A stretch of DNA of 63,043 nucleotides, the filler included, from Octopus bimaculoides (lineage: Eukaryota): NCBI RefSeq assembly GCF_001194135.2. It is 6 parts of 4 records of this genome, joined end to end, with 100 filler letters (N's around TTAATTAATTAA, not from the genome) between each part and the next. Parts side by side here need not be neighbours in the genome. Positions count along the whole stretch, not along the records: positions 6,983 to 18,772 come from NC_068989.1; positions 18,873 to 25,284 come from NW_026334631.1; positions 25,385 to 47,295 come from NC_068999.1; positions 47,396 to 53,089 come from NC_068988.1; positions 53,190 to 63,043 come from NC_068989.1; 1 more part is not named here. One strand, given 5' to 3'. Made by a program: the position numbers and the translations under genes. The notes under the pieces are model-generated. The model ran no database searches. It was not told the DNA's origin and saw nothing but the letters and a program-made list of their open reading frames with translations. Below are positions 7,059-53,345 of this stretch, one piece after another (the stretch's first letter is position 1; each line of letters begins with the position of its first letter).

Positions 7059-7105
7059 TCTGCACTGACAAGGGGCAACACCCTGAAACTAGTCTAGTCT
7101 GCAGA
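7059..7105 (+). ncRNA. Decayed minimal hammerhead ribozyme at the 5' side of the Penelope remnant
   Basis: tctgca-CTGACAA-GGGGcaacaCCCT-GAAAC-ta-GTC-(tagtc duplicated)-tgcaga; core G8 to A and a 5-bp duplication. Confidence 0.6.
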
Positions 7106-7169
7106 TGCCAAACCAGCAAGGGGGAGCTGCTGACCTCCCATGTTCGAAGGTTATAAAGGACACAGATTC

Positions 7170-8450
7170 GTGTGTCACATAGCTAGCTAGAGGCGATGGC
7201 CTCTTGGAGCTAATCCACGGCAGCATTCGTCCTAATTTTGGGACTGCCATGTTGGCTTGGCGATAATTATTAATATCCAGTACCGCTGCCGTAGTCTCCT
7301 TTAGAGAGACTTAGAAATATTAATATCTCCAACTACTAGGTAGATTTTCAGCAACAAATTTGCCTATATTTTCCCATGCGTTGAATGTTTATCTAAGAGA
7401 TACACGTTATGGTCACACCGGTGATAGAGCCAGTAGCTACTAATCTCTGTATAGTTGATTATTTAGATGTTTCCCTAGAGCTGAACTCCTCCTCGTATAA
7501 AACTTTCTTAAGCCCAATGAGAGACTCACATATATGCATAAACAGTCTTGTCACCTTCCAGTAGTCTTTAAAAATCTTATAGCTTATATAATCAAGAGAT
7601 TGTCTAAGCTTTCAAAGACATTTTCGACATAACTGCCTCTACTATAACAAGGCCCTAACCAATAATGTCTTCAAGGATGTATTAATATATAATCCCTCTG
7701 TTACTCAAAATATTAATAATAGATCTAGTAGCATCAAAAATAAAGTAGTACCTAACCACGCTAGTATTAATTAAGATAATAAGAATTCAAAAGTTAAGTC
7801 AAGGAAAATTATTTGCCTTGCTCCCCCCATTTCCCCTTAATATAAAAACTAACATTGGTAAAAGATTCCTGTCACTTCCAGACAAACACTTTCCAGCTAC
7901 TCGCAGATACAGGAAAATATACACTAGGAGTTCCGTGAAATTATCATATAGCTGCTGCCCAAATATGAACAGTACCTTTACACGTGATCAACACCAAGAA
8001 CCAAAATCCAGCTGCAACTCTCGTGATCCAGGATCCTGCCCCCTTGACCAACGATGTAAGATTAAATCTATCATATGTGAGCCAGAAGTTACTACCACTC
8101 TAAATAATAATACAAATGATAAGAAGACCTATATTGGATTATGTGAAGGAAGATTTAAAAAAGGGTATGCCAATCACAAAGGTTCCTTCCGATATAGGGG
8201 CAAAAGTAAAGCTACTAAGTTGTCTAGCTACGTATGAACTCTGAAGATAACGAAACGGCGCATGTGATTAAATGGAAAGTAATTGAGAAATCAAAACCAT
8301 ATGTGAAATAATCGAATAAATGTAGACTTCTTTTTGGCTGAAAGAGCACAGATCTTGTTCAGATCAAAGATCCCTTGCTCTCTATTGAACTCCAGGTCAA
8401 AAATTTTCAGTGGTTTCATGCATATATGTAAATATATTTTGAAGAATTAA
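7170..8450 (+). mobile_element. Penelope-like element remnant (RT plus GIY-YIG endonuclease), frameshifted
   Basis: RT-like VATNLCIVDYLDVSLELNSSSYKTFLKPN; then CNSRDPGSCPLDQRC...KTYIGLCEGRFKKGYANHKGSF...TKLSSYV, typical of the PLE GIY-YIG domain. Confidence 0.9.
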
Positions 8451-8625
8451 AAACTTCCGATTATTCCTTACTGACTTGATATGTTTCTGGCCTTATCACT
8501 TGGATTTCGTTTTCCGTTTTTCGTTTTCCGTTCTTTACTGTCTACGTTTTCTATACGCTACCTTCTCAGCTTCATCGCGTTTCTTCTATTTATTCAATTT
8601 TTTAGTTCGTCATGATATGTAATTT

Positions 8626-8678
8626 GCGTCTGAAGGTTATGTTTGAGTTCTCTCAACATATGAAAATGTTAGTAACGC
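8626..8678 (+). ncRNA. Strongly decayed hammerhead-like motif 3' of the Penelope remnant
   Basis: gcgt-CTGAAGG-[atgtttgag/ctcaacat hairpin]-GAAA...GTA-acgc; helix III broken. Confidence 0.35.
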
Positions 8679-8869
8679 TTTAACACATGTATTGTAACCT
8701 TTAAATAATAACATTCATCTCTCACCAGATGGAGTAATTTTTTGATGAATTTTTCTATCACGGATCAGTAATTTTAATATATATACATACATGCACACAT
8801 ACATACATACATGCATGCATACATACATACATACATACATGCATTTATATATATATATATATATATATA

Positions 8870-9087
8870 AACAATATATGAGTACATGCATATATATGTA
8901 CATGTATGTATATACGTTCATCTACATGTATATATAAATACATAACTGGGTACATGACGTGGCAAAAGAACAAGGACAAAATGGTAAACAAGGTGCAACA
9001 AACAAGCAGGCCACATACAAACATCCCCTTCATCAGCTGCCACCATTACAATTCCGGCGTTTCGAAGAATTGAGGCAGTACGCATCG
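8870..9087 (+). repeat. Dispersed repeat related to 13850-14040 (probably a PLE-associated terminal sequence)
   Basis: Shared atgagta(c/t)atgcatatata...ctgggtaca(t/g)gac...caa(g)gccacata layout. Confidence 0.6.
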
Positions 9088-51439: not shown

Positions 51440-51575
51440 TCCCTCGCAGTATGGTGAGATCGATGAGATTGATATTTAGGTCGAATCTCTATATGGTTGG
51501 CAGCCATAGAAAAAGACATTTGTCCAAGATGCCGCACAGTGGAATCGATTCCGAGATCTCGTGGTCACGAAGCTA
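51440..51575 (-). mobile_element. SINE family B-like head
   Basis: gacatttgtccaagatgccgcacagtggaatcgattccgagatctcgtggtcacgaagc. Confidence 0.7.
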
Positions 51576-51734
51576 ACTTTTTAACTTATAGGACAGGTCA
51601 TATTGTGTTTACTGTATTCTAGTTGATAAGGTAGATATACGTTTTAGTAAAATTAAAAAAAGTTTCCATGCGTATCAGATGAAATTTGAATCCACAACAG
51701 TAATCGTTTGCCATTCACCCCTCCCCCCCCACCT

Positions 51735-52095
51735 TTTCTGTTCCTGGGAGGGTCGTGGTGGGAGAGACTTCAGAACTCCGCTCTATTAGGTCCGATCAGA
51801 ATAAATCATCATTATACTTTCCAGCTGGATTCCCAGGATATTATCTAGCCATCTCGTCTTGGTCTACTTCAAGGCCTGCTTCCGGTTGGCTCATCTCGGA
51901 AGAACGTCTGTAGTGCCGGAGCTGCGATCTCTCAACTCAGAAAAGTATTTGCTTGACCCGGAAAGACTCCATAAAACTCCGAGTGACACACCCTATCGAG
52001 TTAGGTTACTTTAGAGATTCTTCGGTGGTGACTCATTCGACTGCTTGTATTCGCGATCGTTCTCTTTCGGTCATTACCCAGCATAGGTGAGGATA
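51735..52095 (-). mobile_element. RTE-clade LINE 3' remnant
   Basis: TERERSRIQAVE..RRISKVT*LDRV...TRWLDNI, a hallmark of the RTE ORF C-terminus. Confidence 0.8.
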
Positions 52096-53089
52096 ATCAC
52101 GAAAAACGAATCGAAGATAAGTTTGAATTATTTAACAATCTCTCCTTTACTGAGGACCGGAAGCTGGAGTCGGCGCATCACTGTTCAAGCCCCTGCACTT
52201 CTAGCTCCCAATTGTTTTGATATTCAATATATTAAACACTGACTTAATGTGTCGTACGTTTAAATTTCATATAACAGTTATTAAACGAAAATGCAGTTGC
52301 AAAGCGATTGTATGGTTGCGATGAGATGATTCACACATCAGAATATTAACCGACAGAATATTTAATATGTTGTTACTTTACTAGAAAGAAATGAAAAATT
52401 CCCCTCTACTTCTTACCCTCACCGTACCATTTAATAACCCTCCTAAGAACACAGCATCATTCACGTTCAAGAGCTATAAACAAAAATAAAATGATAGCTA
52501 AACGAGAGGAAAACGCCCATGATTGCCGTAAAACTACTGAAAGCGTTCATTAGAACCATTTAGAAATTAAAAACTGCCAATAGAAACATTTTATATTACA
52601 ACTTGTTGATTTATGTTATTTTATAGGATTTTTCACTGAAATATCGTCAACATTCATCCAGCTTCCGGTTACAGAAATAAAGTGAAGCAAAAGAGTTCCT
52701 CGCAATGTGAAGTAGAGCGAAACTGATCGCAACATGAAATTCCTCAACCGATCGCTATTCTTTGTGATTTATTGATGTAGAAAGGCGTCGCTTTTAGTTT
52801 CCAAGTTTATTATGAACAAGGAAATGAAGAATAAAAATTTGTAGTATATTCATCAATATATGACAAATAAGTGTGCCCGTGTGTTGATATGATATACGAA
52901 CATAAATATATACATGCACACATACATGCATGCATACATACATACATACATACATACATATATACATACATATACATATATATATGTATGTATGTATGTA
53001 TATGTATGTATATATATGTATGTATATGTATGTATATATACATACACATACATACATATATATACATACATATACATACATACATACAT

Positions 53090-53189
53090 NNNNNNNNNNN
53101 NNNNNNNNNNNNNNNNNNNNNNNNNNNNNNNNNTTAATTAATTAANNNNNNNNNNNNNNNNNNNNNNNNNNNNNNNNNNNNNNNNNNNN
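53090..53189. other. Artificial scaffold spacer 44N-TTAATTAATTAA-44N
   Basis: Same 100-bp construct. Confidence 0.95.
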
Positions 53190-53245
53190 TATATAAAGAG
53201 AGAGAGAGAGAGAGAGAGAATGACAAAGGAGGTAATCAAGACTGG

Positions 53246-53345
53246 GACAAGAACTATTTATTTAGCGCTTTCGCCTCGATAAGGCATTCATCATGAAAGA
53301 TGAATCCCTCAAAGGGACGTTAATGCTAAATAAATAGTACTTATC
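53246..53345. repeat. 100-bp foldback: 14-bp perfect inverted repeat enclosing three small hairpins
   Basis: actatttatttagc (53253-66) / gctaaataaatagt (53325-38). Confidence 0.75.

Follow-up and report, generated by a model that had tools for sequence, protein, structure and literature searches.

Which elements carry the hammerhead motifs scattered through this window (the whole stretch of DNA analyzed, 63,043 nucleotides), and does the palindrome in each helix III serve as a family-specific barcode, as an earlier note had proposed? We conclude that the motifs very probably represent 3' ends, dispersed and for the most part decayed, from several families of Penelope-like elements, together with one retrozyme-like copy, and that their cutting would depend on dimers. 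Hammerheads of this class have already been described (Cervera 2014, 2020; Craig 2021).

All nine sites flagged by the earlier note are present in the 63-kb window, about where it had placed them; we name each motif by its position and strand there. The type I core (CUGANGA / GAAA / NUH) and helices I to III are complete at 17725+, 18699-, 45382+, and 45919+, the cores of the four motifs that had been called intact (17719+, 18647-, 45377+, and 45914+). Core, helix I, and a perfect palindrome are indeed found in 18647-, 45377+, and 45914+. Helix III of 17719+, ACACGT, contains one mismatch, and therefore only three of the four are fully intact; helix II of this motif is long and AT rich. In 45377+, helix III is ACGATCGT, which is perfectly self-complementary, and the 58-nt helix II arm has U.U at its base, as in Hydra-clade motifs (U.U at 10.1/11.1 occurs in 20 of 42 related families). 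The 45914+ motif has a 5-bp helix I, and its helix III, ACTC-G-GAGT, is of a kind known from Penelope elements of the Hydra clade.

The set that had been called decayed is decayed at 7059+, 8626+, 14091-, and 30628+ (cores 7065+, 8630+, 14154-, and 30628+, with at least one core defect each). The exception is 53253- (53294-), which has no helix I and no hammerhead fold. When we tried this region as a type III hammerhead, no NUH or helix I fitted; it forms one long 100-nt hairpin (fold z, -8.87) and is possibly a back-to-back junction of two truncated element ends. Two palindromes had been misassigned: 7059+ has an 11-nt helix III rather than ACTAGT, and 30628+, which may be a chance match, has a loop-less ACGT, AACGTT being obtained by counting in A14 and N17. 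We found that 14091- and 45914+ are one family, with 87% identity over 129 nt. They are the only pair to share flanks.

Table 1. Features of the window (+ and -, strands; cuts are predicted)
Feature	Position	Strand	Details
Retrozyme-like ~363-nt unit, one permuted solo copy	6984..7329	+	Noncoding; left edge abuts assembly gap
Type I hammerhead of 363-nt unit (7059+)	7059..7105	+	Core 7065 CTGACAA; helix III ACTAGTCTAGT; cut after 7099
Hydra-clade Penelope-like ORF remnant	7433..8453	+	5' truncated, frameshifted; end of RT, linker, GIY-YIG endonuclease
Decayed pseudo-LTR hammerhead (8626+)	8624..8680	+	Core 8630 CTGAAGG; helix III AATGTTAGT; cut after 8674
Decayed copy of 45914 family (14091-)	14060..14188	-	Core CTAAAGA at 14154-14148; helix I broken; helix III ACTC-A-GAGT
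Hammerhead (17719+)	17719..17783	+	Core 17725 intact; helix I 6 bp; cut after 17777
Hammerhead (18647-)	18647..18705	-	Core 18699 intact; helix I 4 bp; helix III ACCGGT; cut after 18651
Weak decayed minimal hammerhead (30628+)	30624..30658	+	Core CCGACGA; loop-less ACGT; helix I 3 bp
Hammerhead (45377+)	45376..45464	+	Core 45382 intact; helix I 5-6 bp; cut after 45458
Copy of 45914 family with hammerhead (45914+)	45885..46011	+	Best-kept motif 45913-45975; cut after 45969
Diverged inverted repeat, 100 nt (53253-)	53246..53345		One arm ATGATGA...GAAAGCGCT, without helix I

One motif is directly linked to a coding element. The 8626+ hammerhead lies 177 nt 3' of an ORF remnant that, judged by its sequence, belongs to Hydra-clade Penelope-like elements. 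A profile of 120 homologues matched the remnant at 7821-8453 (iE, 1.9e-47) and 7433-7723 (~1e-6), and 3122 relatives were found at an E value of ≤0.001 (best, 61%). The 120 full-length homologues carry the Hydra-clade hallmarks CxCX5C (75), RWK (80), and DK[TS] (117), with DKG in 5. The remnant retains YIG, and its linker has lost one cysteine but kept its spacing; the positions of RWK and DKT fall outside it. In relatives the hammerhead sits 69 to 332 nt behind the ORF (median, 141), and 54 of 77 related loci have one in the equivalent position on either side of the ORF, with 69 hits on the coding strand versus 5 on the opposite strand. Most reads differ from the window at 8629, 8666, and 8675, which gives a 4-bp helix I and the helix III ACTG-T-TAGT. 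Searches with Hydra-clade protein queries found no ORF remnant beside 14091-, 17719+, 18647-, 30628+, 45377+, 45914+, or 53253-. Pfam matched nothing in 9 ORFs, the motif flanks gave no more than two weak short matches to the 77 related loci, and viral contigs contained no relatives of the Penelope-like element. The proposal that the genome carries many small ribozyme-bearing retroelements is supported in part: the type I hammerheads belong to several small retroelement families that are not related to one another, and two carriers were identified.

The second carrier is the ~363-nt unit around 7059+. Its contig word depth is 4.5 to 7.7e5 versus ~19 for a single-copy piece, a ratio of ~30,000 that is rough and gives no copy count. 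It is transcribed (RNA depth, 50 to 230; reads in 3/3 RNA runs of one study), has a GC content of 0.48, and folds with a z score of -5.41 (6984..7329). Tandem copies 150 to 400 nt apart, which the earlier note had suggested looking for, were found: a head-to-tail joint from 7329 to 6990 with 23 further letters is present in 35, 53, and 23 reads of the three RNA runs, and a joint from 7329 to 6984 is present in one DNA contig. The back-joint, a circRNA-type junction, occurs in RNA reads and also in DNA, and therefore tandem transcripts account for it as well as circles do. Taken together, these features (noncoding, head to tail, type I hammerhead, high copy, and transcribed) identify the unit, at the level of sequence, as retrozyme-like. 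Flanks had been expected to be repetitive, and within the reach of the reads (6984-8770) this is seen both in this very high-copy unit and in the repeat depth over 7433..8453, which climbs toward the 3' end of the ORF remnant.

The window copy of this unit has a C3.A8 mismatch in its core. Reads have T at 7065 in 96/100, 70/71, and 60/60 cases; most copies carry U3, and the core is likely U3-A8. Five letters are missing at 7089 in 34/119, 16/78, and 12/62 reads. Computed duplex energies are -4.8 kcal/mol for ACUAGU with itself, -10.9 for ACUAGUCUAGU with itself, and +1.5 for the cross pair. The unit likely represents a retrozyme family not described before, unusual in its core and in having helices III of two lengths; no report of a U3-A8 or cephalopod-type retrozyme was found among the listings searched, and viral contigs had no match to the retrozyme motif. 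A bolder reading, which we regard as doubtful, is an undescribed, very abundant animal retrozyme with RNA circles, a U3-A8 hammerhead, and two subfamilies that do not cross-pair. In this reading, a 5-nt duplication in helix III would have separated these subfamilies (ACUAGU versus ACUAGUCUAGU), the long form perhaps cutting alone. If true, this would be a natural example of two sister lineages of an RNA parasite becoming isolated through a palindrome change.

As noted above, we favor dimer-dependent cutting. The window motifs have a palindromic helix III whose center pairs only between molecules. In 42 related Penelope families, we found that 49 of 60 helix III positions unable to pair in the monomer are Watson-Crick complementary (0.25 expected), which supports dimers; the binomial P value of 7e-20 overstates the case because the families are related. 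The innermost pair of the 9-nt palindromes is kept in 23/24 sequences, with 5 pair types. Computed energies are +1.3 to +2.9 kcal/mol for monomer hairpins and, on average, -7.8 for homodimers. The covariation supports the view that selection for pairing as dimers acts on the palindrome. Read ends, which the earlier note had suggested looking for, did not pile up at the predicted cuts (N17) over 6984-8770, although fragmented cDNA makes this a poor test. In published work, minimal motifs showed little activity in vitro, dimers included (PMC4209133), and 8/9 Xenopus dimers failed to cleave.

The longer helices III (8 to 11 nt) could instead be ordinary monomer hairpins with 3- to 4-nt loops, so that these motifs cleave alone. 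By computation, the 9- to 10-nt forms can close 3 bp with such a loop, whereas 4 bp can close in the 11-nt form (7065; +0.8 kcal/mol); Craig et al. present the Hydra motifs as canonical (PMC8557442), and monomeric cleavage is known for retrozymes of corals and mussels (PMC7229834). Against this, the loop letters that a monomer leaves unpaired are those showing the complementarity described above, and the 4- and 6-nt forms can close no stable hairpin. We consider cleavage by monomers unlikely. With dimer-dependent cutting, the carrier RNA would be cut only once two copies pair via helix III. In an intact element, the partners would lie in cis on a single transcript, either in its two pseudo-LTRs or in a tandem pair of retrozyme units, and the cut would set the RNA monomer for reverse transcription. 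Truncation of the 5' end at insertion would then leave solo 3' ends like those in the window, which, with no partner nearby, are likely dead.

We also weighed the motifs against chance. The density exceeds that of dinucleotide-shuffled sequence, as had been claimed, at the strict setting (strict core, helix I of at least 3 bp, and near-loopless helix III): 2 versus a mean of 0.03, with 0/100 block-wise shuffles as high. At the loosest setting, the count of 5 versus 2.83 is not significant (16/100 as high). A score-based scan, whose score was devised after the motifs had been seen, found 5 motifs at a score of ≥6 versus 0.15 in shuffles (0/60 as high); it missed 30628+. Strict-core matches at 2056+, 8241+, 26200+, 41378+, 49948+, and 36230- were rejected for unconvincing helices, and 38768- was rejected because its score (5.5) lay inside the shuffle range. 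A covariance model for which we used only loci outside the window, namely the 24 with a 9-nt helix III, ranked 45913+ (E, 2e-5), 7059+ (0.009), and 8624+ (0.14) highest and placed 14091-, 45377+, 17719+, and 18647- at noise level (E, 0.6 to 4); 30628+ and 53253- were absent from its 15 hits. The Rfam hammerhead scan proposed earlier, run as three local scans, gave no match even where this custom model did, nor did Rfam hammerhead families appear among the window matches listed (150 of 288). An origin by chance in repetitive, AT-rich DNA for 17719+, 18647-, 30628+, 45377+, and 53253- would fit their noise-level or absent model scores, the loosest scan, and local folds no better than shuffles (17719+, 18647-, 45377+, and 30628+). 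We judge it improbable for the group: 17725+, 18699-, and 45382+ score 6 to 8.5 in the score-based scan and lack both the 9-nt palindromes and the short helix II of the model. The two others, 30628+ and 53253-, may well be chance matches.

According to the barcode proposal, palindromes were selected to differ among coresident families, so that dimers form with self only and foreign partners, being excluded, can neither trigger nor block cleavage. Consistently with this, the families in the window do have differing palindromes, and the center can differ even between families 70 to 78% identical. Homodimers of intact palindromes are computed at -4.8 to -10.9 kcal/mol (ACGT, -1.7) and heterodimers between families at -0.2 to +11.3. 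In 706/861 pairs of relatives, the heterodimer is worse by at least 3 kcal/mol. In contrast, it is within 1 kcal/mol in 89/861 pairs, and only 20 palindrome types serve the 42 related families. One type occurs in 8 families with protein identity down to 42% and 4 changes on a quick tree, so that several origins or losses are required; the 45914+ type is in 8/42 related families and in File S2 of PMC8557442. In the Hydra magnipapillata genome, ACTT-N-AAGT is common to 6 of 14 listed families with differing helices I (PMC8557442, File S2), and ACGT is common to most minimal hammerheads across phyla (PMC4209133, Fig. S3). Palindromes are thus not unique barcodes, because unrelated families have them in common; a private palindrome for each coresident family is true of the small sample in the window and false both in relatives and in the published Hydra magnipapillata set. 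Cis pairing of tandem copies would also make a code needless. The proposal fails as stated, and we give it little credence. A weak form survives on the computed energies: the window palindromes give homodimers of much greater stability than heterodimers, and palindromes likely favor self-pairing. This preference follows from any palindrome and is therefore no sign of selection for difference. With dimer-dependent cutting in cis, the middle letters would change by compensatory drift inside a small sequence space, and self-preference would be a by-product, because the partner is already tethered.

These data add a covariation test indicating that Hydra-clade hammerheads are selected for dimer pairing, what is likely a further retrozyme family, with its uncommon core and its short and long helices III, and a natural palindrome panel suited to comparing homo- and heterodimer cleavage, which bears on the role of hammerheads in Penelope-like elements.

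Compared with known systems, the window motifs resemble the Hydra-clade Penelope hammerheads of Craig et al. (2021, PMC8557442, File S2) in being type I, ~70 to 330 nt behind a C-terminal GIY-YIG ORF, with 8- to 10-nt palindromic helices III (types ACTC-N-GAGT and ACTA-T-TAGT) and U.U or G-C at the helix II base. They differ in that the copies are truncated and decayed and that helices I and II match none of the File S2 rows, one octopus row included. Like the minimal hammerheads of metazoan Penelope-like pseudo-LTRs (Cervera and De la Pena 2014, PMC4209133), they occur in many families per genome and predominantly as solo copies, and they share a palindromic helix III that is small or lacks a loop, an extra base at 9/10.1, a U3-A8 variant, and a dimer model; unlike there, the strictly minimal ACGT is found only in 30628+, and the other helices III are 6 to 11 nt. 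The 363-nt unit is like metazoan non-LTR retrozymes (Cervera and de la Pena 2020, PMC7229834; Li et al. 2026, 10.64898/2026.07.22.740005) in being noncoding and head to tail, within the mussel size range (350 to 390 nt), with thousands of copies, GC below 50%, transcription, high self-pairing, and a type I hammerhead, and it is unlike them in its likely U3-A8 core and its two helix III lengths.

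The window contained 5851 N, had a GC content of about 0.33, and was rich in gaps and microsatellites, with numerous short dispersed repeats. We located all nine hammerhead sites that the earlier note had claimed. Three of the four motifs described there as intact held up, and the fourth has a flawed palindrome (see the table). The site at 53294− was rejected as a hammerhead, as it lacks helix I and forms one arm of a 100-nt hairpin (fold z, −8.87). Motif density clearly exceeded that of shuffled sequence in a strict scan (2 versus 0.03; 100 shuffles) but not in the loosest scan (5 versus 2.83; 16 of 100 shuffles were as high). 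A score devised once the motifs were known found 5 motifs versus 0.15 in 60 shuffles. When 24 motifs from outside the window were used to build a model, its top matches were 45913+, 7059+, and 8624+; four further window motifs scored only at noise level, and 30628+ and 53253− were missed. The Rfam hammerhead models matched none of the motif sites in local scans. The earlier note's claim of several unrelated carriers stands, because only 14091− and 45914+ have flanks in common.

Hammerhead motifs and other features of the window (motifs by core start)
Feature	Position	Basis or remark
Motifs with perfect core, helix I, and palindrome	18699−, 45382+, 45919+	
Motif with one palindrome mismatch	17725+	
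Core-defective motifs	7065+, 8630+, 14154−, 30628+	
Penelope-like RT-end and GIY-YIG remnant	7433–8453	Profile of 120 homologues
Second, more abundant transcribed repeat, overlapping the end of the Penelope-like remnant	8664–8770	Depth rise; loose ends at 8707 and 8748
118-nt unit, two copies head-to-tail, no hammerhead core	18976–19210	93% identity
AT-rich inverted repeat with three ~24-nt tandem units	45238–45379	Terminates precisely at helix I of the 45377 motif; may be an inverted junction of its carrier
Degenerate 5.8S rRNA copy, likely a pseudogene or repeat part	36660–36803 +	42.6 bits (Rfam gathering score, 42); no further rRNA match nearby among the matches listed
SINE-like dispersed repeat family, 100 to 300 nt	1924–2053, 32308–32525, 38237–38444, 48396–48540, 55129–55748 (tandem cluster)	70 to 89% identity
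12-mer TTAATTAATTAA, likely a scaffolding linker (assembly artifact)	6928–6939, 18818–18829	Isolated within N runs

An ORF piece at 7749–8237 led to a 765-aa protein and to 1065 relatives. A Penelope-like profile built from the best 120 of these identified the remnant 177 nt upstream of the 8630 core, which makes a Penelope-like element the carrier of that motif, and had no other significant match in the window. The marks of the Hydra clade (Craig et al., PMC8557442) were common among the 120 homologues (CxCX5C in 75, RWK in 80, and DK[TS] in 117). Repeat depth in reads from other copies climbs towards the 3′ end of the remnant, and the read letters at 8629, 8666, and 8675, among the 40 of 396 differences listed, allow helix I to form 4 bp and make the 9-nt helix III near-palindromic.

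Parts of 6984–8770 were present in 20 public runs from six organisms. Summed contig depth over 6984–7329 was 4.5 × 10^5 to 7.7 × 10^5, whereas a single-copy piece had about 19. Three RNA runs of one study (about 6 in 100 of each run read) gave a depth of 50 to 230. We found that 7329 is joined back to 6990 through 23 extra letters (35, 53, and 23 reads), giving a 363-nt retrozyme-like unit, the carrier of the 7065+ motif. A DNA contig has the same kind of joint, which proves head-to-tail copies; tandem transcripts would explain the RNA joint as well as circles would. The RNA strands were equal in depth without end pile-up, in a library type uninformative on strand and cleavage. Because 7065 was T in 226 of 231 RNA reads and 7070 was absent from the listed near-fixed differences, U3-A8, a known natural pair (PMC4209133, PMC3088659), is likely the core of this family, from which the window copy at 7065 has likely drifted to a mismatch. 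U3-A8 cores also occur in Hydra-clade pseudo-LTR hammerheads of the metagenome loci described below (L023:1938 and L049:2103). In 19 to 29% of reads, 5 letters are absent at 7089, which gives helix III lengths of 6 and 11 nt.

We scanned 77 metagenome loci of clade relatives (from the best 80 of 355), leaving the inside of helix III unscored. Hammerheads lay on the coding strand in 69 cases versus 5 on the opposite strand, and 54 of the 77 loci had one at the expected place. With an identity cutoff of 80%, the 53 hammerhead loci with an ORF of at least 300 aa grouped into 42 families. Symmetric helix III positions with fewer than 3 nt between them are unable to pair within a monomer; of 60 such cases, 49 showed Watson-Crick complementarity (expected proportion, 0.25; kinship of the families exaggerates the significance). 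The innermost pair was kept in 23 of 24 families with a 9-nt helix, with five pair types, and computed energies were +1.3 to +2.9 kcal/mol for monomer hairpins versus a mean of −7.8 for homodimers. Together, these data support selection for dimer pairing via helix III. Separately, two unlike hammerheads with unlike helices III lie near one Penelope-like ORF at L001:136/311, L007:1255/3847, and L058:1074/1271; these are putative nested or chimeric pseudo-LTRs.

The earlier note proposed that family-specific palindromes might limit dimer formation to self and so serve as a barcode. Computed duplexes favor self by several kcal/mol in the window, and among the relatives heterodimers were at least 3 kcal/mol worse than homodimers in 706 of 861 comparisons. 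However, the 42 families have only 20 palindrome types, and ACTC-N-GAGT is common to 8 of them at protein identities as low as 42%; a quick tree requires 4 changes for this type, and well-supported branches account for 3 of them. Palindrome labels were clustered on that tree (27 changes versus 32.2 shuffled), so sharing comes partly from inheritance. ACTT-N-AAGT likewise occurs with unlike helices I in 6 of 14 Hydra magnipapillata families (PMC8557442, File S2), and ACGT occurs in most minimal motifs (PMC4209133, Fig. S3). Fixed AC...GT ends allow just 4 perfect six-letter and 16 eight- or nine-letter types, and in published dimer models tandem copies of one transcript pair (PMC4209133), an arrangement that would need no code. 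We therefore consider such a barcode improbable; the titles and abstract openings searched contained no statement of it.

The motif sequences, a single ORF link, a tandem unit at high copy number, and covariation were observed directly. We infer that two copies within one precursor would pair through helix III and, by predicted cleavage, cut an RNA monomer out of it. Truncation at the 5′ end would leave solo 3′ ends, which would decay without a partner. Reported cleavage activity for dimers of this type is low (PMC4209133); with Xenopus motifs, cleavage was seen for one dimer out of 9 (10.64898/2026.07.22.740005). The literature searched yielded no octopus or U3-A8 retrozyme, though supplementary lists could include one. 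The window motifs are of a known kind, the hammerheads of Penelope-like elements and retrozymes (PMC4209133, PMC8557442). The 363-nt unit (GC, 0.48; fold z, −5.41) is likely a new member of the retrozyme family, resembling mussel retrozymes in size, GC, and folding (PMC7229834).
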